Origin: Bacteriovoracia bacterium
GTDB taxonomy: Bacteria; Bdellovibrionota; UBA1018; CAIPTA01
Length of the DNA: 64,000 nucleotides
Reading direction: 5' to 3'
Assembly: GCA_050246755.1 (NCBI GenBank)
Contig: JBFWVL010000003.1
Coordinates: forward strand, 192,001 to 256,000
Of this stretch, positions 8,226 through 32,721 are shown piece after piece. The translations under genes and the position numbers were made by a program. Below the pieces are notes generated by a model that worked only from the letters and a program-made list of their open reading frames with translations, was not told the origin of the DNA and ran no database searches. Numbering within the stretch: position 1 is the stretch's first letter; every line of letters starts with the position of its first letter.

Positions 8226-9482
8226 GTGGCCAAACCCCAAATCAGCGTAATTATCTCTGCCAAAAATGAAGCCAATCGATTCATGCCTTGCCTTGAATCG
8301 CTGGCTAAGCAGAAGAGCAAAACCCCCTTCGAAGTGCATTTCGTAGACAACGCCTCCACCGATGGCACTTATGGCAAAGCGCGTAAATGGGTGGAAACGA
8401 ATAAACAGAAAAACTTCTTCGTGTGGCGGGAGAGAAAGCCGGGAAGCCCATCCGCGCGTAACTACGGCGCCCGCCGCGCCCGTGGGCAAATTTTACTATT
8501 TACCGACGCCGACTGCCGCCTCGCTCCCAACTGGGTGCAGGAAATGAGCAAGCCCCTGCTCGAATCCACGCACTACCCCCTCGCGGCGGTGGGCGGGAAA
8601 ACGCTGAGCGAATTTAAGGCGGAAAAACCCAACCTCTGGGAAAAATACCTCGATCAGCTCTTCGATTTCTGGGAGAACGATCGCCTCAATGCCTTTCCGG
8701 CCTTTCTTCCCTGGGCCCCCACCTGCAATCTCGCGGTAAAAAAAGACATCTTCGAGGCCATCGGCGGCTTCGACGAAAACTGGAAGAGCGCCGCCTATGA
8801 CGTGGATCTTTGCTGGAGGATCATTCTCTGCGGCTTCACGCTCGGCTACGCGCCGAAAGCCCAGGCCCGCCACCTCCGCCGCTCTAGCCTGCGCTCCCTG
8901 CTGCGCCAGATGGAGAATTACGCTTTCTATAATTACTCCCTCCTCGCCACCTACGAAAAGCTCCTCAACCTTCCGGCCCTCACGGCGCGAAAAGAGAGAA
9001 TGCTCAGCCGCGGGCGCCGCCTCTTCGCCCTTCTCGGCGACACCAAAAATCTACCCCAGGCCACCTTCCGGGGAATGGACGTACTCGTGGGCCTTTCCGC
9101 GCTGAAGGGCGATCTTGAGGCCCGCGTAGTGGGCGCCAAGGGCAATCCCCGCCTCAACAGCAGCCGCCAGGGAAAAACCCCTGCCGATCTACTGCATCTT
9201 CTGCCCCGTGGTTACGCCCACCTGCACCAGGAGGGATGGTCCTACTGGAAAAGCCCGGCCGACGTGCAGCCCGATACCGGAGATCTTATTTTGTTCCGCC
9301 CCCGCGCCAGCGAACGTTTTCGTTTTAACGAGAGTGCCTGGAGAATCTGGGAAGTGAAATCCGAGGGCGGGCAAAGCGAAGATGCGGCCGAAGCCCTCGA
9401 GCAAGACCCGCACAACAAAAAAGTTCTCTACGATATCGACCAGCTCACCCTCGACCTTCGCTCGAGGAGACTCCTCCCGTGA
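8226..9482 (+). CDS. GT2 glycosyltransferase with C-terminal PqqD/RRE-like domain
   Basis: VDNASTD, ARNYG, FTDADC, GGFDE; C-terminal about 80 aa GDLILF...FRFNESAWRIWE...DIDQLTLDLRSRRLL follows the PqqD pattern. Confidence 0.8.
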   Translation: MAKPQISVIISAKNEANRFMPCLESLAKQKSKTPFEVHFVDNASTDGTYGKARKWVETNKQKNFFVWRERKPGSPSARNYGARRARGQILLFTDADCRLAPNWVQEMSKPLLESTHYPLAAVGGKTLSEFKAEKPNLWEKYLDQLFDFWENDRLNAFPAFLPWAPTCNLAVKKDIFEAIGGFDENWKSAAYDVDLCWRIILCGFTLGYAPKAQARHLRRSSLRSLLRQMENYAFYNYSLLATYEKLLNLPALTARKERMLSRGRRLFALLGDTKNLPQATFRGMDVLVGLSALKGDLEARVVGAKGNPRLNSSRQGKTPADLLHLLPRGYAHLHQEGWSYWKSPADVQPDTGDLILFRPRASERFRFNESAWRIWEVKSEGGQSEDAAEALEQDPHNKKVLYDIDQLTLDLRSRRLLP

Positions 9483-11179
9483 AGCCCGGAAAAGCGCGCC
9501 TGCAGCGCCAGGCGCTGGCCTTGCGCAAAATTCCCGGAATAAAAACTCTCTACCGGCTCTGGTACTCGGTAGGACGACGCCTGCTCACCCGCTTCGCGGG
9601 CTCCCACGCGGAGGTGATTTCGGTATACTTGCGCCGCGGCGGCGGCCGAGACGAGCTGGTGCCCGGAGCCAGCGACCTGGATTTTTTCCTCGTGCTGGAA
9701 ACACTTCCCGCCGAGCAGGAAATGGAGTTCCTAAAGCGCTTCTGGGCGGGATACCACCGCCTCCGCTGGCCCTTCCCCTTTCTCGGCGAAGTATTGATGG
9801 GAGACGAGAACGAGCTCCGCGCCTGGCTAAGCACTCCGGGCGCGCGCGCTTACGAAGCTCGTTTCTCCTGGAAACTTCTGCGCGGCAAGGATTGCTTGCA
9901 GGTAGTTCCGGTAAGGCCAGACCTCCGCGATCTTTTTAGCGAAAGCCTCAAGCACTTTTCCGATCTACTGCAGTCGGTGCTCAAATTAAGGCCGGAAGAA
10001 TTCCACGCGGGCATCGCTTCTCACCAGGCGGGCGCCGTGCACCTCCGGCACGCCGCGAAGGCGGCCTTAGATCTATTTCGCTTCCACGCCAGTGCTTTCG
10101 CCCACAACGAGAATCTCTGGCGCGCCTCCCGCCTAACCCTTACCGAAATCCTTCCTCCGGCCTACGGAGCGAATTTACGCGCGCTCCAGCCTATCCTTCG
10201 CCTGGATTCGCGCCCTTTCGGGGAAGATCCTTTCGCGGTCTATTCCGCCCTGGCCCATACCGCGATCCACTGCCTCCATGAGATGGCTTCGGCACTCACG
10301 GCGCGCGGGGAGGAGGAAGCGGTATTTGCCGTAAGCCAAAAGGCGCAGACCGGCTCGGATCCCTATTCTCTATCGGTGAGAGAGCTCTTCGCCGAAAGAA
10401 CGCTATTGCGCCACTCCGAAATTCTAGCGAGCGCGGTCCTTTCCGAAAATACCGCCGCCATGTATTTCACGATGCCTTCACCGCCATCCCTCGAGGAGCT
10501 GCGAGCCTTGATGCTCGACCTGCGTGAAGTGAGCTTTTCCTTCGATCGCCTTAGCGTGGCGATGCCGCTCACCGTGGCCACCTTCCGCGAGCTCGAGCGC
10601 ACTTCCCTGCTCGATTCTCCGTTTCATTCTTTTTGCCGCCAGCGCGAGATCAAGGCCGACGCCGCCGGAAATCTGGAAACGAAACCGTACGAAATGCCAC
10701 CGGCGCGGATTCCGCTCGGCATGCTGCGAAAGACCTTTGCGGAACTGAGCTTCGGCCTGCGGCTCGAGCCGACCGAGCTTCCTCATTTCCTGGATAAGAT
10801 CGTAGGCATGGTGCTTGGCCTGCGGCTCGCGGCCGACCACCGGGAAGTGAGCGCTGATTTTCGCCAGGCTCTTTCCCTTTTCGGAGTCCGCTATCCTCTT
10901 CGCGTGGAGCATCTCAAGGCGAAAATTCATCCCTACGTTTCCGGGGATGCGGAAGAAAAAATCTGGGACGATATCTATTCCCGCTTAGCCGAAGAGCAAG
11001 GCACGCAAGCAGACTTTCTCCGCTCCCAGCTCGGAGAGCTGCGGCGGAAGAACGGCGCTCTTGCCGGATCCCAAAACGCCGTTTCTGATCTCTGGATCAA
11101 CCTCACCCCTTTCTTGCGGATGGAAATGAACGCCATGAAGGAAAAATACTTTGAAGAGCGGCCGGTGCTAAAAATATGA
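9479..11179 (+). CDS. Pol-beta-superfamily nucleotidyltransferase domain protein
   Basis: SVYLRRGGGRDELVPGASDLDFFLV resembles hG[GS]x9-13DhD; 4-nt overlaps with both neighbours. Confidence 0.65.
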   Translation: MKPGKARLQRQALALRKIPGIKTLYRLWYSVGRRLLTRFAGSHAEVISVYLRRGGGRDELVPGASDLDFFLVLETLPAEQEMEFLKRFWAGYHRLRWPFPFLGEVLMGDENELRAWLSTPGARAYEARFSWKLLRGKDCLQVVPVRPDLRDLFSESLKHFSDLLQSVLKLRPEEFHAGIASHQAGAVHLRHAAKAALDLFRFHASAFAHNENLWRASRLTLTEILPPAYGANLRALQPILRLDSRPFGEDPFAVYSALAHTAIHCLHEMASALTARGEEEAVFAVSQKAQTGSDPYSLSVRELFAERTLLRHSEILASAVLSENTAAMYFTMPSPPSLEELRALMLDLREVSFSFDRLSVAMPLTVATFRELERTSLLDSPFHSFCRQREIKADAAGNLETKPYEMPPARIPLGMLRKTFAELSFGLRLEPTELPHFLDKIVGMVLGLRLAADHREVSADFRQALSLFGVRYPLRVEHLKAKIHPYVSGDAEEKIWDDIYSRLAEEQGTQADFLRSQLGELRRKNGALAGSQNAVSDLWINLTPFLRMEMNAMKEKYFEERPVLKI

Positions 11180-12279
11180 AATCAATTTCTTTACTGATCC
11201 CGGTGCTGAACGAAGAGGATAACCTTCCTTCGCTTTTTCGCGCGCTCACCGCTTTGCGAAAAAAGAGCGGATCCCTGGATATTCTCTTCATCGATAACGG
11301 CTCCGAGGACGAGTCTGTCTCCTTGATCGAAAAATTCTGCGTCTCACAATCCGGGGTGCGTCTCGTGCACGAAAAAGAGCGCGGCTTCGCCCAGCCCTTG
11401 AACCGCGGCCTCGCCGAGGCTAAGGGCGAATATTTACTCTTCCTCGATGCCGATGCCTTGCCGGACCCGAATTGGGCTGAAGCCATGCGCGAGGCCCTCG
11501 CCGAAAGCGATGTTGCAGTGGGAGAAACGAGTTCGTTTTTGTCGGGACGCGCTACTCCTTATGGAAAGCTTTCGCTCGCGCTTTTCAAGAATCACTCGGC
11601 TTCTGCCGCAAGGGCCGAGGGCCACGCTCTTCCCTGGGGGCCCACCTGCAACCTCGGAGTGCGAAGATCCGTGTTCAATAAAGTGGACCTCTTCTCTCCC
11701 GAAGCGGGGGGCGCCTTCGATATCGATTGGTGCTGGCGCGCCGTGCTTCAGGGAGCCCGGCTAGCCTATATTCCCGGCGCCAAGGTGAAGCACCGCCGCC
11801 GCAACGAGCGCGAGGCTCTCCTCCACCAATTCGATCGCTATGGCCGCGGCGAAGCTTGGCTGCAGCGCACGTATGCCTTCCTCACTGGCGACGAAAAGAT
11901 CGATCCGCTTCAGGCGAGCCTCGAAGGCTACCAACGCCTAAAGCTGCGAGCCCCAAAAGCCAAGGGCGCCGAGGAAGTGGCGGTGGCCTTCGCCTCGGGA
12001 GTGCGCGCGGGCTATAGCGGATTTTTCCGTCCTTGCCCTTTGCCGCGGCCCCAGCCCTCAAAAGCCGTTTACTGGAATAATGCCGCGAAGGGAGTGACCG
12101 TATTTGTGCCGGGCAAGGGAGTTACGGAATTCGCCGGCAAAGGCCTCAAAGCCTGGGAAGCCGTGCGGAGCGGAGCGAGCGATGCCGAGCTCGCCGCGAT
12201 CATGACCAAACTCTTCCGCGTGCCGGCTAAGCATGCCCTCGCCGAAGCACGCGAATTCAGAAAGGCCCTCAGTGTATGA
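11176..12279 (+). CDS. GT2 glycosyltransferase with C-terminal PqqD/RRE-like domain
   Basis: IDNGSED, FLDADA, LPWGPTCNL (paralog of 8226); C-terminal VTVFVPGKG...AWEAVRSGAS...AREFRKAL follows the PqqD pattern. Confidence 0.78.
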   Translation: MKSISLLIPVLNEEDNLPSLFRALTALRKKSGSLDILFIDNGSEDESVSLIEKFCVSQSGVRLVHEKERGFAQPLNRGLAEAKGEYLLFLDADALPDPNWAEAMREALAESDVAVGETSSFLSGRATPYGKLSLALFKNHSASAARAEGHALPWGPTCNLGVRRSVFNKVDLFSPEAGGAFDIDWCWRAVLQGARLAYIPGAKVKHRRRNEREALLHQFDRYGRGEAWLQRTYAFLTGDEKIDPLQASLEGYQRLKLRAPKAKGAEEVAVAFASGVRAGYSGFFRPCPLPRPQPSKAVYWNNAAKGVTVFVPGKGVTEFAGKGLKAWEAVRSGASDAELAAIMTKLFRVPAKHALAEAREFRKALSV

Positions 12280-14477
12280 AGCCCAAGATGCTGGTACTGG
12301 CAAAAACCTTGCCCCTCCACGACCGCGCCAGCGGAGACTACCGTCTCTTTCAGATTCTGGATATTCTTCGTAAAGACCTCGACATCGATTTCCTCTCCAC
12401 GATGCACACCGCTTACCACAAAGCCGAGAAGCGCCTCGACTATATCGTGCGCGATTCCACGTTCAATTTTAACAAAGTAGATTTTCTCGACCAGAAATAC
12501 ATCGACGATCTGAAAGCTATCGGCGTGAATCCCCTGAACCAGGCCAAGCCGGTTCCGTTCACGATCCGACCCACGAACGACTTCGATATCCGCCCTTTCC
12601 TCGCCGAGAAACAGTACGACATCGTGTGGGTGGAATTTTTCTACTTAGCTGATCAGTATATCAGCGATATCCGCCGTTTTCAGCCGGGCGCGAAGGTGAT
12701 CTGCGATTCGGTGGACCTCCATTTCCGCCGCCTCGCCCGCCAATCGCATTACCTCGAGCAGGGCGTGCGCTATCTGGTGAATTACCGCCACGAAAAAAAA
12801 CAAACGAGCTCGGCCGCCCACAAACAAAAAGTGCTCGACCACCGCAACTACGCCGACCACGTGCGCGAGCACGAGCTTTCGGCCTACGCGAAATGCGACG
12901 CCGTGGTGGCCGTGAGCGAGGACGATCGCCAGGAGATGGCGCGGCACATACCGAACCTGCCCCTGCTGTTCATTCCCAACATTCACCGCGAGCAGAAAAT
13001 CCGCGAAGACCTGCAGCAGCCTTGGGAAAAGCGCCAAGGCTGCGTGTTCGTGGGAAATTTCGACCATAATCCGAACGTGTCCGCCGCCATCTACCTGAAG
13101 CACGAGGTGGCTCCCTTTCTCGCCAGCGACGATATCCGTTTCCAGATCGTGGGCTCGAATCCCCCGCGGATCGTGCGCACGCTCGGGCAATTCGGGCCGG
13201 CGAAAGAAAAATTCGAAGTCACGGGTTACGTGCCCGATACCGCCCCCTACCTCGCCGGCGCACGGGTGAGCGTGGCCCCCATTCTCTTCGGCGCGGGTAT
13301 GAACGGCAAAATCGGCGAAGCCATGGCCGCGGGCTTGCCGGTGGTGACCACTTCGCTCGGCGCGCTCGGCATGGGCCTCACCAACGGTGAGAATTGCCTC
13401 GTGGCCGACGATCCCGAAGGCTTCGCGAACGCGATCCGCGCCCTCCACGACGATAAAATCCTCTGGGAAAAAATCCGCGCGAATGCCTCCGTTTTCTTGA
13501 AAAAATCTTTTTCCCGCCAGGAGCTCGATCGCCACGTGCGCGGAGAGCTGAAGCAGCAGATCGCCGAAGCCAAGCGCGCGAAGGCCGCGGGAAAATTATT
13601 ACGGGCCGTAGCGCGCTTGCCCAAGTCCTCCCTCTCGCTTCCGCCCGCGAATTTTCCGGCTCGCCCGAAGAAACCGAAATTCACGGTGATCATTCTGGCC
13701 TTCAACCAATGGCAGTTCACGGACCTCTGCTTACGCAGCTTGGCCGTGGCCGATAAAAAGCACCCTGAACTGAAGGTGGAATACCTGCTCGTAGACAACG
13801 CATCTTCCGATGGCACAGCCGCCAAGGCCGCCAAGGTAAAAAACCTGCGCATTCTGCAAAACCAGGAAAATCTGGGCTTTGCCGGGGGCAATAATAGCGG
13901 AATCCGCGCCGCTAAGGGCGAGCATATCGTGATCTTAAACAACGACACGATCGTTCCCCCCGACTGGCTCGCGCGCCTCAACCAACACCTCGAAACCATT
14001 CCCGACCTCGGCATCCTCGGCCCTTCGGCCAATACCGAATCGGGCCAAGCCATCTTCGGCGTGCGCTATAATTCAATCCGCGATTTTTTTGAGTACAATG
14101 ATCGCCTCGGCCGCGATCAGGCCGGCGCCTGGGAACGCGTGAAAAAGATTTCCGGGCTCTGCATGCTGCTTCCCCGCGCTACCCTCGATAAAGTGGGCCT
14201 GCTCGATACGGACTTCGGCATCGGCTACTTCGAAGACGACGACCTCTGCCTGCGCGCCGAAGACAAGGGCCTCAAACTGGTATGGGCCAAAGACGTGTAC
14301 GTGCACCACTTCGGCAGCATGAGCTTCGAGGGAAATTCACTGAAGCGGGCAAAGTTCTTGGAAGAAGGAATGGCGCGCTTCGCCTTCAAATGGGGCAAGC
14401 GTGGCCTAGAGCATATCGCCAAGGCCCATAAAGAAACGTTGCTGCGTACCCGTAAACCGAAGACGCTCGCGTTCTAG
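12276..14477 (+). CDS. Bifunctional GT4 + GT2 glycosyltransferase
   Basis: GT4 part FVGNFDHNPN, GAGMNGKIGEAMAAGLPVVTT; GT2 part VDNASSDG, NLGFAGGNN, LNNDT, YFEDDDLC. Confidence 0.88.
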   Translation: MKPKMLVLAKTLPLHDRASGDYRLFQILDILRKDLDIDFLSTMHTAYHKAEKRLDYIVRDSTFNFNKVDFLDQKYIDDLKAIGVNPLNQAKPVPFTIRPTNDFDIRPFLAEKQYDIVWVEFFYLADQYISDIRRFQPGAKVICDSVDLHFRRLARQSHYLEQGVRYLVNYRHEKKQTSSAAHKQKVLDHRNYADHVREHELSAYAKCDAVVAVSEDDRQEMARHIPNLPLLFIPNIHREQKIREDLQQPWEKRQGCVFVGNFDHNPNVSAAIYLKHEVAPFLASDDIRFQIVGSNPPRIVRTLGQFGPAKEKFEVTGYVPDTAPYLAGARVSVAPILFGAGMNGKIGEAMAAGLPVVTTSLGALGMGLTNGENCLVADDPEGFANAIRALHDDKILWEKIRANASVFLKKSFSRQELDRHVRGELKQQIAEAKRAKAAGKLLRAVARLPKSSLSLPPANFPARPKKPKFTVIILAFNQWQFTDLCLRSLAVADKKHPELKVEYLLVDNASSDGTAAKAAKVKNLRILQNQENLGFAGGNNSGIRAAKGEHIVILNNDTIVPPDWLARLNQHLETIPDLGILGPSANTESGQAIFGVRYNSIRDFFEYNDRLGRDQAGAWERVKKISGLCMLLPRATLDKVGLLDTDFGIGYFEDDDLCLRAEDKGLKLVWAKDVYVHHFGSMSFEGNSLKRAKFLEEGMARFAFKWGKRGLEHIAKAHKETLLRTRKPKTLAF

Positions 14478-14986
14478 GGAACGCGCTTGAACTTGCCGTT
14501 AATAAAATTGTAAGTGCGATCGCTAACCTTATCGCTGAATTCACCGCGTTCCGTAATGCGAGTCGTCACGCGTCCACGGCGGTCCATGCGAACGGCGCCT
14601 ACGGAATCCACCGGTAGGTAGTCGGTGTCCGCAGATTTTCCCACGATCATCGGCACGAACTTCTTTTCCTTCGCGCTATACTGATAAATATAGAGACCGC
14701 CCGAGATTGGCGAAAACATCACGCGCACCGCGAAGTCCTCGGAACCGTCTGCGTTGAAATCCTGGATCGCGATCGCGGCCTGGTGGCCTTCGTAATCGAA
14801 AGGCACGAAGTCCTCCTCGATTCTCTGATTGTTCCCCGACGGTAAACGCACGCTGAGCACATATTGCCCCTGCGACTCGCGCATGTTCACCGAGGCTTTT
14901 CCGTTCTCGCCCAAGTTGAGTTCCTCGGCCTGAACGGGGGTGGTCACAAATAGTAGGGCGGCGATCAGCCAAAGCTTTAGCGACAT
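14474..14986 (-). CDS. Secreted protein with DxNxDGxxD motif (XAC2610-like; possible hydrolase inhibitor)
   Basis: Signal peptide; IQDFNADGSEDFAV...LYIYQYSAKEKKF; overlaps the upstream hydrolase gene by 10 nt. Confidence 0.6.
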   Translation of the reverse strand: MSLKLWLIAALLFVTTPVQAEELNLGENGKASVNMRESQGQYVLSVRLPSGNNQRIEEDFVPFDYEGHQAAIAIQDFNADGSEDFAVRVMFSPISGGLYIYQYSAKEKKFVPMIVGKSADTDYLPVDSVGAVRMDRRGRVTTRITERGEFSDKVSDRTYNFINGKFKRVP

Positions 14987-17706: not shown

Positions 17707-17858
17707 CTCGAATCGTATGCCAAGGGACTAAGGCCCTTCCTACCCTTCGGTATTCCTTGAAATTTTCGGAAGAAAAATCATCCGTTTTCGATCGCGAAAA
17801 TAGGATTACCCAGGCCGCCTACACGGAAACCGCCAGGTAAAAACCGCGAAAATACGAT

Positions 17859-18527
17859 TTAGGACTTTGGAAAGAGCGTGGGAACTTCGAGGCCGAGCGC
17901 GCCGAGCCCTACACGGTAAGCCTGGGAAGCTCGCCAGAGCAGCAAGCTGCGCCGGCCGCCGAGGAAGCGGTCTTTAAGCTCGTGAGTAAACATAAAAGCT
18001 TGGGCACCCAGAAGATAATAGCGGAAGCGGGATTCTTCCAAGGACCATTTCCGGAAAGAAATATTACGGCCGCGTGGGTCTTTGGCTCCCTCTACCCTTC
18101 CCAAAATTCTTTCGGCCGTCACGAGGGAGGCGGAAAAAGTATTGTCGCCCGCTTCGAGAAAAAGATTTCCGGTACGGCCGATTAGGCGGTGCACCCGAAG
18201 CTGCGCTTCTCCGCTGCGCGCACGCGCCTCCACCACGATGAGATCGCCGGGCGACAAAAATTCAGGATTTATTTTTCGGTAGCGGATGCGGTAGCCGGGC
18301 CGTAAGATCGGCCACATCGAGACGCCCTCCACCACGGCCTCTTCAGTTTTGCGTGAAGCCTGGGGGGCAAGAGACTGGACAAAAAGTTTGGTAGCGAGCC
18401 TTTCGTGCCGCGAATGTTTTCGCGCCGATTGCTGGCTAGAAGTAAGCGTGGACCCGTTTGATCTTTTCGTATTTCGTGAGGGTCGGCTTTTGGTAGGTTT
18501 TTTTGGACTTCCCAGTTTTTTTGACAT
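17859..18527 (-). CDS. S24/S26-family peptidase (Ser-His type); start uncertain (ATG 18527 or GTG 18335/18332)
   Basis: VEGVSMWPILRPG, GDLIVV, VHRLIG, AGDN, ILGRV. Confidence 0.8.
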   Translation of the reverse strand: MSKKLGSPKKPTKSRPSRNTKRSNGSTLTSSQQSARKHSRHERLATKLFVQSLAPQASRKTEEAVVEGVSMWPILRPGYRIRYRKINPEFLSPGDLIVVEARARSGEAQLRVHRLIGRTGNLFLEAGDNTFSASLVTAERILGRVEGAKDPRGRNISFRKWSLEESRFRYYLLGAQAFMFTHELKDRFLGGRRSLLLWRASQAYRVGLGALGLEVPTLFPKS

Positions 18528-18540
18528 TTTCCTTCGTCAT
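18436..18540 (-). CDS. Putative RiPP precursor peptide, 34 aa (lasso-type YxxPxL leader), absent from the ORF track
   Basis: Hand translation MTKENVKKTGKSKKTYQKPTLTKYEKIKRVHAYF*; AAGGA RBS 8 nt upstream, overlapping the PqqD stop codon. Confidence 0.78.
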   Translation of the reverse strand: MTKENVKKTGKSKKTYQKPTLTKYEKIKRVHAYF

Positions 18541-18550
18541 ACGACGGTCC

Positions 18551-18844
18551 TTATTCTTGAAACTCTAAGAGCCGCTCAGCCAGAAGCTGACCGCAAAACT
18601 CCAAAGTGTCTTTTTTCGCTTGTTCCAACTCGCAATCATACTCTAAGCGCAGGGATTCAATCAAATCCTTCACGGTTTTGGGCTTTTCCGCCACCACCGA
18701 CCAGAGATGCGTTCCCACGCGATCCAGCGCAAAATAATCTCCACTGCCAAAATGCAGCAGCACGGCTTCCCCGTCCACCGACTTCCAGTGAACATTTTTC
18801 GATTTGCGCACCTGGGTGGCTTCGCTGATCTTCGAAAACTTCAT
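18551..18844 (-). CDS. Stand-alone PqqD-family / RiPP recognition element protein
   Basis: WKSVDGEAVLLHFGSGDYFALDRVGTHLW...LRLEYDCELEQAKKDTLEFCGQLLAERLL. Confidence 0.9.
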   Translation of the reverse strand: MKFSKISEATQVRKSKNVHWKSVDGEAVLLHFGSGDYFALDRVGTHLWSVVAEKPKTVKDLIESLRLEYDCELEQAKKDTLEFCGQLLAERLLEFQE

Positions 18845-18876
18845 GTCCAATTTCTGCCTGATTCAGAGCGGCTGTG

Positions 18877-20928
18877 TCAAGGGGACACCGCCTCGCGAAG
18901 GTCTAAGGGAGAAATAGAATGCTCTGAATAAAATTCAGCCTCCTTGGTTTGCTGCATAGCGGCTTTGTCGCCTTTGGCCCGAAGCAGCTCGGCGTATTCC
19001 TGACGAAGGGCCGGGTCGTCACTATGCACCCTCACCAACTGGCCAAGCGCGTCAGCAGTGCGCAGAATATCTTTACGGGCCCGAAAAATCTGCGCGAGCT
19101 TACGGTAGAGGGAAGGAGGAAAGCGGCGGTAGCCACGGTATTGAAGGGCCGCTAGTTCGTACTGCAATAAGGCCGCGGGCTCCCGATTTTCCAGCATATA
19201 GAGGTCCCCTAGCTCTTCGCGTTTGGTCCAATAAGGAAAGTATTTGCCGGGAAACTGCGCAAATACGTTTTCGTAGTCGGCGATCGCAGCCCGGCGGTTC
19301 CCCGACTTGGCGTAGTACTGGGCGCGCAGTAGGTAAAAAGTATTATTGGTGAGGTTAGGCTCCCGCGTGCGCGCAGAAAGTTTCGCATCCTGGAATTTTT
19401 CCGCGGCGGCCTCCCAGGCTACGAGCCAGTGATCGTCGGGTAAAGAATTCAGGCCGGCGGTGAGAAGAATCACGGCGTTCCAAAAATCATCTTTCCCGCC
19501 AAGCAGCGCCGCTCCCCGCTTCCAAATACTGCCGCCTTCCCGCTGTAGGCGCTGGTGAAGCACGCTGGCGGCGGACCGTACGGCGATTTCCTGCTCTTCG
19601 AACGTGAGATTTCCGGGCCGGAGGCCTTCGAGGTATTTTAGGAGAATAGGAAGTGCTTCCTCTCCGCCGCGAAACCGCTGCGCGCGTGCGCTCCAAGTAT
19701 TAAAAACGATGCGGAATTTTTTTGGGTATTTCTGGTAGGCGTCTTGCCATAAGGATTCCGTGCTTTGCCAAACCGCGATGCGAGGAGCCGTAGCGAAGAC
19801 CGCTACTGCGAGCAGGGCCGAAAACGGGACCGCCCAAAAAATCTTTCCTGTTTGGGAGGCAAGTTTTAGGAAGAGCGCCGTGAACAACCAGGCAAACGCG
19901 GGCAGAGCCAGATAGAGATGCCGTTCCGCAAAGGGATCAAGCACGGGAAAAATAGAATTGGTGATGGAGAGCGCACCGAAAATCCAGAGCACGCAGAAAA
20001 AAACGGGGGCGCGGCTTTTCCGGAGAGCGTAAAAGAAAACAGGCAACGTTGCCCAAACCGCCAGACCGCAAAGAACATTCGGGTCTTTCCACGAGTCAGG
20101 AAAGGAAATCTGGTGATCGATGGCCTGGAGATCGGGGCGGAAAAATAGGCGGAGGATATTCGGCCACTGCGCCACTGCGATCGGCCAGTAGTCGCGAATC
20201 GAAAAAATATCTAAGTCGCCCCCGATTTGATAGAAGCCGCTGCTCGCCCCCACGAGGTAAGGCCATTTCAGTATCGCCCCCGCCGCGCCCGCCGCCAACA
20301 AAGGCGCGCAGTACGGTAAAAGCTCCACCCAGCGGCGGCCTAAATAGGCATGGTACAGCAGTAATAGCGGAAGCAGGGCCAGGGCGCTCTCTTTGGTTAA
20401 AAAGGCGGCGGCGGCGGCGATCATGAATCCCAGCCAAGACCAGAATCCGGGTCGTTCCCTCCCGTAACACCAGAGCGCACAGAGCAGAAAAAGCAATACC
20501 ATCAGCGAGGAACGGCCAGATAAATAGACCACCGAGTCCACCGCGAGCGGATGCAATAAAAATATTCCGCCCGCCAATACCCCGCCCAGCGCAGCGCCCT
20601 CCCGGCGCCGGAAGAGGCGGAAGAAAAACAAGCCCACGAGCAGCGCATTGAGTGCGTGAAAAAGCAGGCTCGGCGCCCGCAGCGCGGAGAGTGAAAGCCC
20701 GGCCGCGGCATAGCTCAGCGCGAAGCTCAGGCTCGTGAGCGGGCGGTTCCGCGAATGCTCGCTCTCGATGAAGATGCGCGGGTGAGCAAGGTAGCGGATC
20801 GCGCGATTATCGATCACGTTGGAGGCATCGTCGAATTGATAGGGAAAAGGCAAGGAAGGCAAATAGAGAAAAAGGTAAACCCCTACCAGCCCCGCGATCA
20901 CCGTAAATAGAAAAAATTTAAAGCGCAT
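18877..20928 (-). CDS. TMTC-like GT-C membrane glycosyltransferase with C-terminal TPRs
   Basis: FDDASNVIDN, RPLTSLSFAL, HPLAVDSVVYLSGRSSL, KES, AERHLYL, WQSTESLW, then helical repeats. Confidence 0.75.
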   Translation of the reverse strand: MRFKFFLFTVIAGLVGVYLFLYLPSLPFPYQFDDASNVIDNRAIRYLAHPRIFIESEHSRNRPLTSLSFALSYAAAGLSLSALRAPSLLFHALNALLVGLFFFRLFRRREGAALGGVLAGGIFLLHPLAVDSVVYLSGRSSLMVLLFLLCALWCYGRERPGFWSWLGFMIAAAAAFLTKESALALLPLLLLYHAYLGRRWVELLPYCAPLLAAGAAGAILKWPYLVGASSGFYQIGGDLDIFSIRDYWPIAVAQWPNILRLFFRPDLQAIDHQISFPDSWKDPNVLCGLAVWATLPVFFYALRKSRAPVFFCVLWIFGALSITNSIFPVLDPFAERHLYLALPAFAWLFTALFLKLASQTGKIFWAVPFSALLAVAVFATAPRIAVWQSTESLWQDAYQKYPKKFRIVFNTWSARAQRFRGGEEALPILLKYLEGLRPGNLTFEEQEIAVRSAASVLHQRLQREGGSIWKRGAALLGGKDDFWNAVILLTAGLNSLPDDHWLVAWEAAAEKFQDAKLSARTREPNLTNNTFYLLRAQYYAKSGNRRAAIADYENVFAQFPGKYFPYWTKREELGDLYMLENREPAALLQYELAALQYRGYRRFPPSLYRKLAQIFRARKDILRTADALGQLVRVHSDDPALRQEYAELLRAKGDKAAMQQTKEAEFYSEHSISPLDLREAVSP

Positions 20929-21955
20929 GTTCCAGGAGTTTTTTGCGTCGCAGCCCCCAGCTCAGCAGGGCCCGTGCGAAACCGAATCCATACGCCAGGT
21001 GGATCCAGGGAAAAAGTCCGGCGGCAAGCCAACCCGCACGGTCGCGCGTGGCGAACGAGGTGGTGAACAAGGCCACCAACAGGGCGTAGGAGACGAGCGG
21101 CAAAAAGGCCAAGGGAGACGCGGAAAAATAAGGGAGGCAGAGGAGATAAAACAGGAAAAAAGTGGGCAAAAAGTAGAGAGGACGCAGCGTATGGGGCAGC
21201 AGCAATAAATTTTGTGCCCTGCCCGCTCCGTATTTCGCGGCCTGCTCCCAAGTTCCCGCCCACGTTTCGCGGCGGCGATGGTAAACGGCGAGCCGCGGCG
21301 AATGCCAAAGCTTCGTGCCCGGATGGTCGAGCTGCTGGAGCAGCACATTCTCTTCGTTCGAGATCAAGTGCGTGGCGAATCCGCCCTGCGCGAAAAACGC
21401 CTCTCGCCTTATGGCGAGATTGCAGAGAATTAGCGCATGCTCGCCGCTTGGTCCCTCGGCCAGCTGGCGGTAGCGCCCGCGCATCGAAGCAGCTCCAAGG
21501 TAGGAAGCCAGCACGAAACCGGCCGCCCTCTCCAGTGCACCACTGTCGGGAGGAGTGAGATTGGCGCCGCCGGCGGCCAGTAGCGCGGGATCGCGAAAAA
21601 GCGCAGAGGCCGCTTTGCCTAAATCTTGAAAGCATTCGATATCGTCATCGAGAAAAAGCAAAAGTTCCCCGCGAGCCTGGGCTACGCCCAAATTCCTTGC
21701 TGCGCCGGGTCGCCGGCCACTGGCCTCTAGCACCAACAAAGGGAAGTCTGCGTTAGCCAATAACTCTGCGCTAAATCGCAGCACCTCGGCGGAAGCCCCG
21801 TTTAGCACCAGCACGAGCTCCCAATCCTCCAGCGTGGAATGAGCGCGAAAACTCGAGATGGCCCTGGCCAATAAATCGGCACGGCGAAACCCCAGGATCA
21901 CCACGCTCAACGCCGGCTGAGCACTATTCCATTTCGGGTTCGTTTGGGTTTGCAA
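20918..21955 (-). CDS. GT2 glycosyltransferase with C-terminal membrane segments
   Basis: GAARNLG, FLDDD, ILCNLAIRR, NEENVL; TTG 21955 is preceded by AAGGAG at 7 nt. Confidence 0.82.
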   Translation of the reverse strand: MQTQTNPKWNSAQPALSVVILGFRRADLLARAISSFRAHSTLEDWELVLVLNGASAEVLRFSAELLANADFPLLVLEASGRRPGAARNLGVAQARGELLLFLDDDIECFQDLGKAASALFRDPALLAAGGANLTPPDSGALERAAGFVLASYLGAASMRGRYRQLAEGPSGEHALILCNLAIRREAFFAQGGFATHLISNEENVLLQQLDHPGTKLWHSPRLAVYHRRRETWAGTWEQAAKYGAGRAQNLLLLPHTLRPLYFLPTFFLFYLLCLPYFSASPLAFLPLVSYALLVALFTTSFATRDRAGWLAAGLFPWIHLAYGFGFARALLSWGLRRKKLLEHAL

Positions 21956-22040
21956 CGCAAAACTCCTTATCTTTTTGCCGGCGGGGAGAAAGAAGGCCCT
22001 TTCGCTTGAATCCGCCTCGGCCTTGCCATAGATTTCCCCC

Positions 22041-23084
22041 ATGGTGGCCCTGGAAACCCGCAAAGGCAAACATTTTTGCTTGCACGGCATCGCCGTGGAA
22101 CTGCGCGGAAATCGCGTTGACCGCGTTGCGGGCGATTTTGATTTTTATACGGGCCGCGCCATCACGGGAAAAGAAAAATACCGCGTGATGCTCGAGCTCG
22201 GCCCGGCGAGCGCGGTGAAGTTGCCCGCGGTGGCCGCCGAGAGAGTTTTTTCCGATTGCGTGCTCTATCGGGAAGGCGAAAAGCTTTTTTACGAATATTC
22301 CGGAGGCGCCGTTCTCGAAGTGGAAAGAGGAAAAACTTTTTCCCGCGGCCGCCTGAGTTCCGACAATACGGATCTCGCCGACGAAATCGCTTACCTTTAT
22401 CTACAATCGGAAATTGGCCGCTTCCTCGATGCCCAGGGCTTGCACCGCGTGCACGCGCTCGGGATCGGCCTTCCCAGCGGAAAAGCCGCGCTGGTATTGC
22501 TGCCGAGCGGGGGCGGGAAAAGCACGCTGGCGCTTGAGCTTCTCCAGCAAGAAGGCTGCGTACTGCTTTCCGACGACAGCCCGCTCGTGGACCGGGTCGG
22601 CCGGGTATACCCCTATTTGCTGCGGCTCTCTTTTCGCCCCGACGCCAAGCTGCCCGCTGCCTGGAAAGAAAATTCTCTCCCCTTCGAGCGGCGTAAACAC
22701 GGGCCCAAGATCCTCGTTTCGCCCGCCTCGCTCTCCTCGGCCGCCCTTCCGCGGCCCGAAGACCGCTTTGCCCCAGGATTTTTGGTGATCGGTAGCCGGC
22801 ATGGCGCGCTCGCGGAGCCGCGTCTCGTAAAGAGAGCCAAGTGGCAAAGCGCGCTTCCCCTTTTTCGCGATCTAGTGGTGGGCCTGGGCGTGCCGCAGGT
22901 GGCGGAGCTTCTGCTCACCAAGGGAATTCTTAGCCTTCCCGGCCTCGCTCCCACCGGCGTATCCCGGCTGGCGGCCGCCTCGGCTTTTCTCGCTCGCGCC
23001 CACACATTCGAGCTCGAGCTTTCCCGGGATCCCGTGCGCAATGCCCGTTTCTTAATTGAAACGCTCGAGGCCAACGCGCGATGA
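22041..23084 (+). CDS. HPr kinase-related P-loop kinase
   Basis: VHALGI, PSGGGKST and LLSDD motifs in HprK-like order. Confidence 0.75.
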   Translation: MVALETRKGKHFCLHGIAVELRGNRVDRVAGDFDFYTGRAITGKEKYRVMLELGPASAVKLPAVAAERVFSDCVLYREGEKLFYEYSGGAVLEVERGKTFSRGRLSSDNTDLADEIAYLYLQSEIGRFLDAQGLHRVHALGIGLPSGKAALVLLPSGGGKSTLALELLQQEGCVLLSDDSPLVDRVGRVYPYLLRLSFRPDAKLPAAWKENSLPFERRKHGPKILVSPASLSSAALPRPEDRFAPGFLVIGSRHGALAEPRLVKRAKWQSALPLFRDLVVGLGVPQVAELLLTKGILSLPGLAPTGVSRLAAASAFLARAHTFELELSRDPVRNARFLIETLEANAR

Positions 23085-23863
23085 AACGCTTCTGCGCGAT
23101 TTTCAAGCCCCGCTCCCGTGAGTTGATGCGCACGCTGATGCGGATGGAGCTCTCGCTCATGGAGCAGGGCACACTCTTTGGCTTCGTGCTTTCCTTCCTG
23201 AACAATATCCTGATGCTGCTCGTATTCCACGCGCTCTTCGTGACCCGCTTCATCTCGGAAGTGCCCAATACCTGGGTGTACCTCCTGCTCGGCATCGTGC
23301 AGTGGAATCTCTACATGAATATCTCGCTCGCGGGCTTCGCCTGCTTCGTGTACCGCCAGAAACTAGTGATGGGGTATTCTTTTCCGCGGGAAAAATTAAT
23401 CCTCGCCCGTACCGCCGCGATCTTCGTGCCCTATATCATCGAGCTCACCCTGATCCTCGGCGTAGCTCGCTACTTTCACCTGCCGTTCACCTGGAAATAT
23501 GCCTGGCTTCCGCTCTTCCTCCTCAATCAGTTCCTCTTTTGCGCCGCGATTTGCGCCGTGTTCGCGTTCGTTGGGGTGCTCCACAAAAACATCATTCCCT
23601 TCTGGAACCTAATGTTCCGCCTGCTGTCGTTCGCCACCCCCATTTTTTATATTCCCTTCCATTTCAAAACCTGGTGGGTAGAAGGCCTGTATAATTTGAA
23701 CCCCTTTACGATCTTCATGCTTTGGGTGCGCGATATCGCCGGCGCGAACGGCTTCGCTTTCGAATCCAAGCCCCTGAATATAACCCTCGCCTCGGCCGCG
23801 ATGTTCCTGGGGGCCTATTTGCTTTTCCGGATTATGGAAGCGCGCGTAGGTGACAACCTATGA
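23081..23863 (+). CDS. ABC-2 permease, Wzm/TagG-like
   Basis: About six TM segments; LSFATPIFY and LNPF; coupled to a Wzt-like ATPase. Confidence 0.8.
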   Translation: MKRFCAIFKPRSRELMRTLMRMELSLMEQGTLFGFVLSFLNNILMLLVFHALFVTRFISEVPNTWVYLLLGIVQWNLYMNISLAGFACFVYRQKLVMGYSFPREKLILARTAAIFVPYIIELTLILGVARYFHLPFTWKYAWLPLFLLNQFLFCAAICAVFAFVGVLHKNIIPFWNLMFRLLSFATPIFYIPFHFKTWWVEGLYNLNPFTIFMLWVRDIAGANGFAFESKPLNITLASAAMFLGAYLLFRIMEARVGDNL

Positions 23864-24549
23864 GCGAGCTGATCGTCACGCGCGGCCTCACCAAGGCATT
23901 CCCCCGCCACAAGGGCGCGCGCACCGTGGTGAAGAAAATCGCCCACCTCACTTGGATGCGCGAGTTCGTGCCCGTTTTCGAGGGCGTTAACTTCCGCCTG
24001 AAAGCCGGTGAAAGCGTGGCTTTGCTTGGTCCGAATGGCTGCGGCAAGAGCACTTTTCTCCGCTGCTTGGCGGGCGTAATTGCTCCCACCGCCGGCGAAA
24101 TATTCCATCGGGGAAAGACCGTGGCCTTGCTCTCCCATGGATTCGGCAACTACGACGAGCTCGCCGTTTGGCAGAGCATCGTATTGGCCCAGCAGCTTTT
24201 CGGCGCTTCGCTGGCCGAGGCTAAAAAGAATATCGAGCAAGTGGGGGCATTCGCCGGAATCGAAGACCGGCTAAAAGACCCTTCTTCTCAGCTATCCGAG
24301 GGAATGCGCGCAAAGATTTCCCTTTCGGCGCTCGCCTTCGCGGAATTCGACGTGGCTCTCCTGGACGAAAGCCTGAACCACGTAGACGCCGATTTCCGCC
24401 AGCAATACCTCGAGCTGACACGGAAGTGGATAAGGGAGGGCCGCAGTCTCATCCTTACCTCCCACGATGAGCAGCTCCCCTTGCGTTTCGCTAATCGCTT
24501 GCTGAGGATCGAGAACAAAAAACTGACGCCGGCCAGCCGAACGAGTTAA
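23860..24549 (+). CDS. ABC ATP-binding protein, Wzt/TagH-like, with no C-terminal carbohydrate-binding domain
   Basis: GPNGCGKST, LSEGMRAK, LLDE...VDADF, TSHD. Confidence 0.82.
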   Translation: MSELIVTRGLTKAFPRHKGARTVVKKIAHLTWMREFVPVFEGVNFRLKAGESVALLGPNGCGKSTFLRCLAGVIAPTAGEIFHRGKTVALLSHGFGNYDELAVWQSIVLAQQLFGASLAEAKKNIEQVGAFAGIEDRLKDPSSQLSEGMRAKISLSALAFAEFDVALLDESLNHVDADFRQQYLELTRKWIREGRSLILTSHDEQLPLRFANRLLRIENKKLTPASRTS

Positions 24550-24559
24550 AATAGGGCCC

Positions 24560-25669
24560 ATGCCCAAGAAGATCAAAGTCATCACCAGCGATATGCACCT
24601 CTCCGCGGGGCGCTTCGTGGATGGCGTGCAGAACCCCCACGAAGATTTTTTCTTCGACCGCGAGTTCTGCGAGTTCATGGAATATTTTTCCAGCGGCAAA
24701 TACGGCGACGGCTGCGAAGTGGAGCTCATCCTCAATGGCGACGTGCTCGACTTCCTCAACGTGCAAACGCAGGGTGAGTTCGCCGACGTGGTTACCTCCG
24801 AAATCGCGGTCGAGAAATTGCGCGCTATCCTCGCCGGCCATCCGGAAGTGGTGGCCACCATGCAGCGTTTCGTGCGCAAGCCGGGCAAAAGAATTCTCTA
24901 CAACGTAGGCAACCACGACCTGGATTTATTTTTTCCGGCCGTGCGCGAAGAGTTTTGCCGGGCGATCGGCGGCGAACACTGGAAGCCCGAGCAAGTGTGG
25001 GTGAACGTGGAGACCGAGCTCCTCGCCTATCCCGAAGGAATCGAGGTACACCACGGGAATCAGTTCGAGGCCGTGCATACCACCAACTACCAGCAGCCCT
25101 TCGTGACCGAAAACCTGCCCGAGCCCATCCTCTACCTGCCCTGGGGCTCTGTATACGTGATCAAGATCATCAATCGCCTGAAGTGGGAGCGCGACTATAT
25201 CGACAAAGTACGCCCCGCTAAGCTCTTCATGGCGATCAGCTTGATCTTCGATCCCATCTTCACGCTGAAATTCTTCATTCTTTCGGCGTTCTACTTTTTG
25301 CACACGCGCTTCATCTATAACCCGCGCCGCCGCGCTACGATCACCAATACCCTCGAGATCATGAAGGAAGAAATCACGCCCTTCTACGGCCTCGAGGACG
25401 ACGCCCGCGCCATTCTCGACCAGAGGCCGAATGTGCACACCGTGATCTTCGGCCATACCCACGGCCCCATGCAACGCTTCTACCGCGACGGAAAAACGTA
25501 TATCAATACCGGTACGTGGACGCGGATGATCAACCTGGATTTCCGTAACCTCGGGCAATCCGCCAAGCTTACCTTCGCTTATATCGAGTACGACGATGAG
25601 GGTAAGCCGCGCGCTACCTTAGAGGAATGGCTCGGCCTTCATCACCCGCACCGCCCGTTTAATTTTTGA
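24560..25669 (+). CDS. Calcineurin-like metallophosphoesterase
   Basis: SDMH, GDVLD, GNHD, HHGN, FGHTH. Confidence 0.85.
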   Translation: MPKKIKVITSDMHLSAGRFVDGVQNPHEDFFFDREFCEFMEYFSSGKYGDGCEVELILNGDVLDFLNVQTQGEFADVVTSEIAVEKLRAILAGHPEVVATMQRFVRKPGKRILYNVGNHDLDLFFPAVREEFCRAIGGEHWKPEQVWVNVETELLAYPEGIEVHHGNQFEAVHTTNYQQPFVTENLPEPILYLPWGSVYVIKIINRLKWERDYIDKVRPAKLFMAISLIFDPIFTLKFFILSAFYFLHTRFIYNPRRRATITNTLEIMKEEITPFYGLEDDARAILDQRPNVHTVIFGHTHGPMQRFYRDGKTYINTGTWTRMINLDFRNLGQSAKLTFAYIEYDDEGKPRATLEEWLGLHHPHRPFNF

Positions 25670-26566: not shown

Positions 26567-26594
26567 AGCCAAGGTATCGGCACAACGCGGAGAT

Positions 26595-27270: not shown

Positions 27271-27603
27271 ATGATTCGTTTAACGCTTATGGATGGCAGC
27301 ACCTGCGAAATTAATCGCGCCGACGCGCGCGGTTTAGTTCCGTATACGCACGTGTTCTCCTCGCCGCTTTTACGCGCGCCGATCGAAGGCGTGCTCTGCC
27401 ATAAGGGAAAACCCCTCCCCGTGCTCGGCCCCTTGCCGAGCGCCGATGAAATTTCCCGGGATATAAATAGTCGCCCCTGGATCTTGGTTTTCGAAGACCA
27501 TGCCCAGGTAATTCGCGGCTTGCCGGATTTCGGCGATCAAAGCGCCACGCTGCTCAAGTTCGAAGAGGCAGAAGCGCCGAAGGCGCAACTCAGGATCGCG
27601 TAA
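27271..27603 (+). CDS. Divergent CheW-like domain protein
   Basis: SPLLRAPIEGVLCHKGKPLPVL resembles the CheW P...GvinlRG.i.Pv motif; start taken at ATG 27271. Confidence 0.5.
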   Translation: MIRLTLMDGSTCEINRADARGLVPYTHVFSSPLLRAPIEGVLCHKGKPLPVLGPLPSADEISRDINSRPWILVFEDHAQVIRGLPDFGDQSATLLKFEEAEAPKAQLRIA

Positions 27604-29685: not shown

Positions 29686-29803
29686 GGGAATACGCTACCC
29701 CGAAATTCCTCGGGCGGGAAGAGTTAGCCCGGCGATTGACTCACCGCTTCTCCGCTACGAAACCTCTTGCCCAGCAACTCGGCCCTCTGCTGTAATCCAA
29801 AGC

Positions 29804-32710: not shown

Positions 32711-32721
32711 TTTTTCCCGGC

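Follow-up and report, generated by a model that had tools for sequence, protein, structure and literature searches.

A conserved RRE-peptide module among glycan genes in a family of Bdellovibrionota

Organization of the locus

We analysed a 64,000-nucleotide stretch of DNA (the window) from a Bacteriovoracia bacterium of the phylum Bdellovibrionota (contig JBFWVL010000003.1, positions 192,001 to 256,000). Positions 8226..25669 of the window combine genes reminiscent of RiPPs (ribosomally synthesized peptides that carry post-translational modifications) with genes for glycan synthesis and export. An earlier note, made from the letters alone, had read a tiny peptide encoded here as a primer or carrier on which leader-guided glycosyltransferases build a glycan, and which is then cleaved and exported. 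Every gene it named is present where it was placed, and its interpretation as a whole is partly supported by our results.

Three gene groups lie in the stretch, and within each the genes are joined by 4-nt or short overlaps. Group 1 (+ strand, 8226-14477) consists of GT2-A, a nucleotidyltransferase, GT2-B and GT4-GT2. Group 2 (- strand, 21955-17859) consists of GT2-C, a GT-C/TPR protein, a stand-alone RRE, the 34-aa peptide and an S26 peptidase, and group 3 (+ strand, 22041-24549) of a kinase, Wzm and Wzt. The genes and the evidence for their assignment are as follows (GT, glycosyltransferase; RRE, RiPP recognition element; NTase, nucleotidyltransferase; aa, amino acids):

8226..9482, + strand: GT2-A, family 2 GT with a C-terminal RRE (residues ~339-413); PF00535 E 8e-25, PF05402 E 0.016
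9479..11179, + strand: Pol-beta/ANT-type NTase, 566 aa; motif conservation, AlphaFold (AF2) model, Foldseek
11176..12279, + strand: GT2-B, paralogue of GT2-A with a probable C-terminal RRE-like domain; PF00535 E 1e-24
12276..14477, + strand: GT4-GT2 double GT, candidate chain extender; PF13692 E 5e-26, PF00535 E 1e-21
17859..18527, - strand: S26 signal-peptidase homologue, soluble, archaeal/ER-type; TIGR02228 E 2e-5, below cut-off
18436..18540, - strand: 34-aa precursor peptide, MTKENVKKTGKSKKTYQKPTLTKYEKIKRVHAYF; conservation, codon-level selection
18551..18850, - strand: stand-alone RRE (PqqD / lasso-B1-like), start probably the ATG at 18844; PF05402 E 5.8e-15
18877..20928, - strand: GT-C-fold membrane GT with C-terminal TPRs (TMTC-like); PMT_2 E 0.005, TPR E 0.002
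20918..21955, - strand: GT2-C, hydrophobic C-terminus, start codon uncertain (~21955 to 22043); PF00535 E 5e-15
22041..23084, + strand: HPrK-like P-loop kinase; TIGR04355, TIGR00679 and TIGR04352 at E 0.01-0.02 only
23081..23863, + strand: Wzm-like ABC-2 permease; PF01061 E 1e-6
23860..24549, + strand: Wzt-like ABC ATPase, 229 aa; best NCBIfam model NF050108 (galactan export Wzt/RfbE) E 5e-28, below cut-off

Conservation across genomes

The source genome (G000) is 95.7% complete. Since the counts that follow cover kin, which are not independent, they are to be read as showing linkage, not as a statistical test. The NTase and the S26 peptidase were detected in the same 5 of 61 genomes (G000, G003, G004, G006 and G007), which span three genera of one Bdellovibrionota family. 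GT4-GT2 occurs in 5 of the 11 genomes of the order, an identical set. The kinase, Wzm, Wzt, GT-C, the RRE and both GT2-RREs are also present in G003, G004, G006 and G007 as well as in the metagenome locus L052, and in all of these a GT2 sits between the kinase and the GT-C. All three gene groups are contiguous in G004, G007 and L052; the NTase of G003 lies on a different contig. Neighbourhood comparison thus confirmed that the operons co-occur in other genomes, with the full set in 5 of the 9 genomes of the family. The observation is real and conserved.

A profile of the peptide matched 6 of the 11 genomes of the order (6 of 9 in the family) and, in a sample of the phylum, 5 of 401 genomes, every one in the same family. 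Besides the five genomes with the full system, G008 (86% complete) encodes a diverged 31-aa peptide (58% identical) at a distance of 4 kb from GT2-A and GT2-B; elsewhere this genome has a kinase of 27% identity. Searches of G008 gave no S26, NTase, GT-C, Wzm or GT4-GT2. Thus, the peptide tracks the GT2-RREs most closely. The profile search gave no peptide match in G001, G002 and G005, and neither GT-C nor Wzm was found in the four family genomes lacking S26. Close homologues are labelled Bdellovibrionota or Oligoflexia by their sources. An RRE search in metagenomes placed 4 of 39 loci in the close clade (60-71% identity); the other 35 (24-42%) belong to other RRE systems and were left uncounted.

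The precursor peptide

The peptide consists of a variable, Lys-rich N-terminus, a YQKPTL leader motif and a C-terminal VHA-YF, with a net charge of +9. Its gene directly follows that of the RRE in 9 of 9 close loci (five genomes and four metagenome RRE loci of at least 60% identity). Over the last 19 codons, the 36 pairs formed by nine homologues show 273 synonymous versus 16 non-synonymous differences, and 279 of the 317 base changes in this stretch fall at third positions. Because synonymous changes far exceed non-synonymous ones, we conclude that the peptide is a real gene.

The precursors are 31-40 aa long, and 17 of the last 19 positions are invariant in nine aligned rows. Across ten rows, Y16, K18, P19, Y24, K26, K28, R29, A32, Y33 and F34 are invariant. 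These include the Tyr and Pro of the YxxPx(L/V) motif (Y16-Q-K-P19-T-L21) and the terminal A32-Y33-F34, which is kept in 10/10 rows, the G008 peptide included. The peptide ends in KIKRVHAYF with an invariant core of two or three residues, and Ser and Thr are absent after position 22 in 10/10 rows. Its profile returned 0 matches against the PDB.

In 9/9 peptide genes (window 18436-18495, - strand), A+T-rich loci included, Tyr is encoded by TAC at all three positions and His by CAC. Either a high-expression codon bias or a constraint from an overlapping frame may explain this usage.

Overlap with the S26 peptidase gene

The start codon of the S26 gene lies inside the peptide gene in the +1 frame, an overlap of 92 nt, and this arrangement was seen in 9/9 loci. 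In each of them the ATG arises where an Asn codon, AAT (position 5 or 6), meets the next G, while the following residue varies (Val, Glu, Ala or Asp). The +1 frame is open across the peptide gene into the S26 domain in 9/9 loci. Synonymous reshuffling, for which codon tables were borrowed in three loci, kept this frame open in 10-88% of trials per locus; the product of the frequencies (~3e-5) overstates the case, the loci being kin. At locus L055 no start codon exists from the peptide stop to the catalytic Ser, and in the window S26 could otherwise start only at one of two GTGs, 4-5 codons ahead of the Ser; alternatives further downstream exist in the other 7 loci. Two stops interrupt the same frame in G008, where it is not followed by an S26 gene. 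Of the 14 closest S26 representatives, inspected by eye, 9 start with the +1-frame translation of the peptide gene and 2 start otherwise, whereas the called sequence of the remaining 3 begins at the catalytic Ser.

Over the peptide, the +1 frame shows 276 non-synonymous versus 5 synonymous differences, a pattern which indicates that amino-acid selection acts on the peptide frame. On the same ground we rejected the idea that the peptide is merely a side product of the frame for S26. We also rejected a +1 frameshift at the stop of the peptide gene as the source of S26, because it leaves the conserved upstream ATG and the open overlap unexplained. The overlapping start would couple the supply of peptidase to translation of the precursor. 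At such an overlap, gene prediction reports the peptidase and can overlook the peptide; the +1-frame imprint of the latter is legible at the N-termini of S26 database entries.

Within the peptidase, S70, H113, R114, G127, D128 and N129 are invariant in nine rows, and the catalytic Ser is present in at least 90% of 27 wider rows. No transmembrane segment was found in it. A hydrophobic-moment scan did not single out its C-terminal helix as amphipathic, so that a role of this helix as membrane anchor is unsupported.

As to the cleavage site, the -3/-1 rule of signal peptidases favours a cut after Val-His-Ala, which would leave Tyr-Phe, because the hydrophobic residue at -3 and the small residue at -1 fit this rule. 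The cut would fall one residue earlier, after Arg-Val-His, leaving Ala-Tyr-Phe, if the register of LppA were transferred (motif Tyr at -16, cleavage after Phe-Glu-Thr). LppA is the precursor of the linear polyphosphorylated peptides (LPP) encoded by lppA-K-B-S-D-N of Paenibacillus alginolyticus (Popov et al., Nat Commun 2026, PMC13381572).

RRE domains and leader-guided glycosyltransferases

The best solved relatives of the stand-alone RRE are TbiB1 (E 3e-13), PbaB1 (9x90, E 3e-11) and LppB (9x8z, E 0.018), which places it nearer to TbiB1 and PbaB1 than to LppB; D79 and F83 are invariant in five rows. A second RRE was found at the C-terminus of GT2-A, weak by sequence (the PF05402 match listed above) but clear in the AF2 model. 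The model has a mean pLDDT (predicted local distance difference test) of 92 and shows three strands followed by three helices at residues 339-413, a block with pLDDT 93-98. In a structure search with this model, the matches listed were GT-A folds, covering residues 1-336. Across 66 homologous rows the RRE is conserved, and the DAD motif is kept in 54; precomputed annotation places PF05402 on 16 of 78 GT2-A homologues. Searched against 27,614 frames of the genome, the profile of the GT2-A RRE matched only itself and the stand-alone RRE (E 0.037), and hhalign comparison of the whole alignments with the RRE gave probabilities of 0.7% for GT2-A and 1.8% for GT2-B. The DAD motif of GT2-B is present in 7/7 rows, and its C-terminus probably forms an RRE-like domain, judged from weak profile matches (hhalign at E 0.004 and a probability of 8%; in G008, PF05402 on the orthologue at E 0.043). 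MftF, the glycosyltransferase of mycofactocin, is the best NCBIfam model for both GT2-RREs (121.6 and 116.4 bits, cut-off 280).

We modelled the complex of GT2-A with the peptide. The model scored 0.80, the best of three controls 0.37; of solved complexes, 116 of 157 attain the mark applied, of mismatched pairs 2 of 215. Runs share at least 62% of contacts, and partner pLDDT is 59 or higher. In the contacts placed with confidence, residues 14-27 of the peptide meet strand 363-371 and helix 400-414 of GT2-A, in the same geometry as reported for LppB-LppA. Residues 28-34 are not confidently placed, hence the model is silent on Tyr33 and the GT site. The GT2-A RRE is thus predicted to dock on the YxxPxL leader, in line with the RRE binding that the earlier note had assumed. 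Solved RRE-leader complexes exist, so the score may stem from resemblance to them and is a measure of likeness, not of binding. Fusions of an RRE with a PF00535 glycosyltransferase have appeared in genome-mining surveys as uncharacterised proteins, with no substrate or pathway given in the accessible text (PMC7470986, PMC12710340).

The RRE domains could also be relics. By this account, a shrunken LPP-type cassette merely came to lie inside a glycan locus, the C-terminal domains of the GT2s are leftover RREs, and glycan synthesis does not depend on the peptide. LPP clusters likewise sit in capsule loci, and the accessible text demonstrates no capsule link for them (PMC13381572); moreover, GT2-B remnants persist in G001 and G002, two genomes in which no peptide was found. 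The remnants are intact, with a shortened N-terminal part and a decayed DxD motif. Loss of DxD speaks against the account, as do the conservation of the GT2-A RRE across 66 rows, its predicted binding of the leader, and the restriction of full-length GT2-A to the six family genomes that carry the peptide. We regard mere co-location as very improbable. The remnants (L119:14655-15608 in G002, L121:1805-2764 in G001) occupy the same chromosomal site.

Unlinked proteins that share the peptidase module

The earlier note had reported no radical SAM enzyme in the window, and had held that a lasso cyclase or radical SAM protein elsewhere that uses the peptide would refute its interpretation. There is indeed none among the cluster genes, and we found no such cyclase. 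At C1:959-962.6 kb of the source genome, however, a 2-oxoglutarate (2OG)-Fe(II) oxygenase and a radical SAM/SPASM protein carry the C-terminal module of the S26 peptidase, and this unlinked pair could act in the pathway, which counts in part against the note's interpretation. In G000 the module occurs only in S26, the oxygenase and the radical SAM protein (E 1e-29, 6e-13 and 3e-13; next match 0.57). The radical SAM protein with the S26 tag is present in 4 of the 5 full-system genomes and the fused oxygenase in 3 of 5; in G006 the oxygenase gene lies ~7 kb from S26. The oxygenases of G000, G003 and G006 also contain an S26-like domain without the catalytic Ser motif (E 5e-22 to 1e-16). Neither the oxygenase nor the radical SAM protein has an RRE match. 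The operon (G000:C1:959.0-967.3 kb; L041:9034-17300) also holds a second radical SAM/SPASM gene, a GT2, an epimerase and a membrane protein.

A second stand-alone RRE stands beside paralogues of the NTase (42-43%) and of GT4-GT2 (53-56%) at G000:C5:116.6-120.9 kb (L008:10647-14889) and G004:C49 (L039:10001-16135), with no peptide or S26 match within the fetched DNA. This set may serve the same peptide as a satellite module for tailoring. Together with the oxygenase and the radical SAM protein, its NTase/GT4-GT2 pair may provide accessory tailoring that docks on the same RRE-peptide complex.

In another reading, the peptide itself is an adaptor or switch: nearly all leader, it would fold or activate the RRE domains and gather GT2-A and GT2-B, the S26-fold proteins and the tailoring enzymes to build an ordinary lipid-linked glycan, S26 acting as docking platform or off-switch. 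The contrast between a core of two or three residues and 17 invariant positions among the last 19 fits this idea. So do the oxygenase domains without the Ser motif, an S26 without the Asp of LppS, the presence in G008 of the peptide where no S26 was found, and the insolubility of LppB without its peptide (PMC13381572). It leaves unexplained why S70 and H113 are invariant in 9/9 rows, why the Ser persists in the wider set, and why A32-Y33-F34 is invariant although it lies beyond the RRE-contacting residues of the model. On balance, an adaptor seems unlikely to us.

The same proteins permit a mycofactocin-like scheme, in which the unlinked radical SAM/SPASM protein and the 2OG oxygenase oxidise Tyr-Phe, S26 frees it and the MftF-like GT2s add a sugar tail, yielding a small cofactor or signal. 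The confinement of the S26 C-terminal module to these three proteins, the proximity of oxygenase and S26 genes in G006, the aromatic core and MftF as top model are all consistent with it. The incomplete distribution of the two tagged enzymes, their lack of an RRE match and MftF scores far under the cut-off are not, and Wzm/Wzt and GT-C travel with the system, pointing to the cell surface. We find this scheme highly doubtful.

Kinase and nucleotidyltransferase

The kinase has the His-Lys-Asp-Asp motif of lasso-tailoring kinases (H138, K160, D178-D179); K160 is invariant, and H138 and D179 are present in at least 90% of 55 rows. Its profile matched nothing in the PDB below E 0.15, and a single-kinase query found no relative among 188 candidate stretches. 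A search with the kinase alignment reached at least 8 loci with, among the matches listed, four full-length distant kinases (31-37% identity). Their neighbours are a flippase and a GT4 (L044), a related NTase (L046), GTs and an ABC transporter (L047) and a membrane protein weakly GT-C-like (L045, E 0.004).

In the NTase, S65-D66-L67 and E104 of the pol-beta motif are invariant in nine rows. Its AF2 model (mean pLDDT 84.5) has AadA and AAD(9) as top Foldseek matches (E 7e-4 to 3e-3, over about half of the protein). No Pfam match at E 0.05 and none in NCBIfam was obtained, so the protein is not an NTP_transf_5 member. An NTP_transf_5 gene at C2:133-134 kb was rejected as a member of the system because it has unrelated neighbours and no candidate for a peptide was seen there.

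These two enzymes invite a reading of the peptide as donor: the kinase and the NTase would activate its C-terminal end as an NDP-like species, the GT2-RREs would move it onto an undecaprenyl-linked glycan and S26 would remove the leader, so that a normal Wzm/Wzt-exported glycan ends up decorated with Tyr-Phe. This accounts for the joint presence of kinase, NTase, DxD-bearing GT2-RREs and Wzm/Wzt, and leaves the exporter with a lipid-linked substrate; pol-beta NTases that modify protein Tyr exist (GlnE and GlnD). It conflicts with the fold of the NTase, closest to AadA/ANT enzymes that act on sugar hydroxyls, and with G008, where peptide and GT2-RREs are present and no NTase was found. Furthermore, LppK did not phosphorylate an S3Y variant of its peptide (PMC13381572). 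We consider a donor role quite unlikely.

Comparison with known systems

The earlier note's view that no characterised pathway has this composition is not supported as it stands: the core of RRE, signal peptidase, HPrK kinase and NTase within polysaccharide loci is that of the LPP family (PMC13381572). As described there, LPP share with our locus a discrete RRE, a YxxPx(L/V) leader, a soluble archaeal-type signal peptidase with Ser and His, an HprK-like kinase, an NTase, the lack of a cyclase and the setting among polysaccharide genes. However, LPP precursors are 35-200 aa long with variable cores polyphosphorylated on Ser3, whereas the core here is an invariant (Ala)-Tyr-Phe without Ser or Thr, and the LPP leader consensus after YxxP (ending in FET, then Ser at core position 3) is unmatched. 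The exporter is a two-gene ABC-2 system, Wzm/Wzt, rather than MsbA-like, and the host belongs to Bdellovibrionota instead of Bacillota. The NTase of our locus is ANT-like and without an NTP_transf_5 match. Beyond the LPP core genes, our locus has two GT2-RRE fusions, GT4-GT2, GT-C and a peptidase gene that overlaps the precursor gene. A word search of the accessible LPP supplements for Bdellovibrio returned at least one row, an unrelated SpI outside the LPP class (PMC13381572). Because Ser3 core, core length, leader consensus and exporter all fail, the locus is not an LPP.

The clusters of the lasso peptides paeninodin and pseudomycoidin resemble our locus in their B1-type RRE, YxxPxL leader, His-Lys-Asp-Asp kinase and sugar-linked NTase, but they have a macrolactam cyclase, a B2 cysteine protease, a ring-forming core and a C-terminal Ser, none of which is present here (PMC9266682). 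The absence of an asparagine-synthetase-like cyclase and of a B2 protease, already asserted for the window, held up. The two full AsnB genes of the genome lie on other contigs, have intact GATase domains and no PqqD match near, and adjoin glycan genes and glutathione synthetase. PF13471 (Transglut_core3) gave 0 matches in G000; three weak matches in the 11 genomes of the order include none on a peptide-bearing contig. At most three residues follow the expected cleavage register, while a lasso ring needs Asp or Glu at 7-9. Since cyclase, B2 protease and core all fail, the locus is not a lasso cluster.

The MftA core of mycofactocin consists of two residues and contains Tyr, as does the C-terminal core here, and the GT2s of the locus have MftF as best model, although at 116-122 bits they fall short of the equivalog cut-off of 280. 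Unlike in mycofactocin, no linked radical SAM or MftD/MftE homologue is found among the annotated cluster genes, and glycan export genes are present. MftF itself oligoglycosylates a RiPP product (PMC7491314). With Wzm/Wzt-dependent surface glycans the locus shares Wzm, Wzt, a multi-domain GT4-GT2, a kinase that could cap the glycan and a GT-C that could transfer it. The known systems of this kind use a lipid carrier, and to our knowledge none includes an RRE, a precursor peptide or a signal peptidase.

A literature search that did not reach material under subscription, supplements on bioRxiv or images of figures turned up no paper with this gene composition. What sets the locus apart is the fusion of GT2s with RREs, a dipeptide core, the presence of Wzm/Wzt together with GT-C, and the gene overlap. 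By analogy, peptide capture and trimming resemble LPP, and the two-residue aromatic core with MftF-like GT2s resembles mycofactocin.

A tentative pathway

We tentatively favour a reading, just short of probable in our judgement, in which an LPP-like peptide-maturation module has been rewired into a surface-glycan pathway, with leader-guided glycosylation of Tyr and trimming by S26 feeding a surface glycan. The 34-aa precursor, whose gene is attested by conservation, would be translated and held through YQKPTL in RRE domains, as predicted for GT2-A. GT2-A and probably GT2-B would dock on the leader and add the first sugars to Tyr33, the only core hydroxyl; as no more than two or three core residues are left, there is a single plausible site for any modification. 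GT4-GT2 would lengthen the chain, and the ANT-type NTase and the kinase would add nucleotidyl or phosphate groups, more likely to the sugar than to the peptide. The stand-alone RRE would hand the peptide to S26, for which RRE-dependent cleavage of the precursor by LppS is the precedent (PMC13381572). A cut after Val-His-Ala, modelled on LppB/LppS and on the -3/-1 rule, would free glycosylated Tyr-Phe. Finally, and this is the weakest step, the product would join the Wzm/Wzt and GT-C route to the cell surface. That the ribosomal Tyr-Phe dipeptide serves, via the GT2s, S26, Wzm/Wzt and GT-C, as primer or covalent tag of an exported surface glycan is a more specific claim, which we think possible and rather unlikely.

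Several observations weigh against the favoured pathway. Wzm/Wzt move lipid-linked glycans, and Tyr-Phe is not a lipid. G008 retains the (V/I)xA-YF ending with no S26 found, so this ending need not reflect S26 cleavage. The GT2-RRE operon of G006 is ~57 kb from the peptide, and the RRE-like helices of its GT2-B are truncated though the peptide is present; conversely, the GT2-B remnants of G001 and G002 keep the RRE-like domain (hidden Markov model E 5e-16 and 7e-30) where no peptide was found. The loci of the four distant kinases that were among the matches listed showed no RRE or peptide in the fetched DNA (4/4; two contigs of ~5 kb). Because of this and of a core without Ser or Thr, the kinase may act on sugar. 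These loci suggest that kinase and NTase form a putative glycan-tailoring pair that need not touch the peptide. By eye, the S26 peptidase also has Ala or Ser at the site of the Asp required in LppS (D93, beside S29 and H68; PMC13381572) and in SEC11 (Asp122). Its peptidase activity is nevertheless likely, judged from the retained Ser70, His113 and GDN, and because its wider, distant subfamily is likewise without an LppS-type second Asp.

Other genes of the window and related clusters

The GT-C has eight transmembrane-like stretches and Atlas feature matches of 0.98-0.99 to GT-C/TPR clusters; its profile gave 0 matches against the PDB. The length of Wzt (229 aa) leaves no room for a C-terminal carbohydrate-binding module. 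Among 20 window proteins, a family scan revealed no undecaprenyl-phosphate initiating transferase; the rest of the genome was not searched for it. Promoter and terminator scans were at chance level (9 versus 6.0 +/- 2.7 and 26 versus 27.1 +/- 6.7), and an Rfam scan gave 0 matches.

A secreted XAC2610-like gene and a glucosaminidase (14474-17706) stand between the operons, and a metallophosphoesterase (24560-25669) sets the end coordinate. The metallophosphoesterase is 76-79% identical in three genomes without the peptide; the glucosaminidase also occurs in these three, one of which has the XAC-like gene. Metallophosphoesterase, RibD and glucosaminidase were rejected as parts of the system, as all occur in genomes without the peptide. 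The glucosaminidase-domain protein (14977-17706, - strand) is secreted and 909 aa long, with several near-identical repeats of ~25 aa; its relatives measure only 385-509 aa. The 300-aa product of the gene at 25670-26572 (- strand) is secreted and carries a protein-glutaminase-like domain (PF18626, E 4e-6); in the loci of the relatives it was not seen in this place. More glycan genes follow at 27590-34038, namely two GT4s, a nucleotide-sugar epimerase/decarboxylase and an O-antigen-ligase-like membrane protein; GT4 and epimerase are also present in G002, a genome without the peptide system.

Elsewhere in the family, a separate cluster of RRE and radical SAM genes (L100:8298-12910 in G006, L102:9272-12696 in G007, L103:2158-3841 in G001) has a Cys-rich precursor of ~50-63 aa with a YxxP-type leader and looks like another uncharacterised RiPP type; the G006 copy also has a kinase-like gene and an S26-NTP_transf_5 fusion. 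Another RRE cluster in G004 (L101:7725-15000), with kinase-like, transporter-like, NTP_transf_5 and S26-like genes, is nearer to the standard LPP layout. Finally, G008 has orphan RREs with Lys-rich N-terminal extensions at L098:813-1127 and L097:9977-10330, near which no precursor or enzyme was recognised.

Implications

The reach of the finding is narrow, since the peptide was found in a single family. For directing glycosylation to a chosen site of a peptide, leader-guided GT2s would be portable tools. The LPP paper, in its accessible parts, leaves the final product, the role of the NTase and the polysaccharide-locus setting open (PMC13381572), and the variant described here makes this link testable. 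If true, a peptide-primed glycan joins the logic of RiPPs to polysaccharide assembly in this family of Bdellovibrionota, and would hint at the function of LPP and phospho-lasso clusters within capsule loci.

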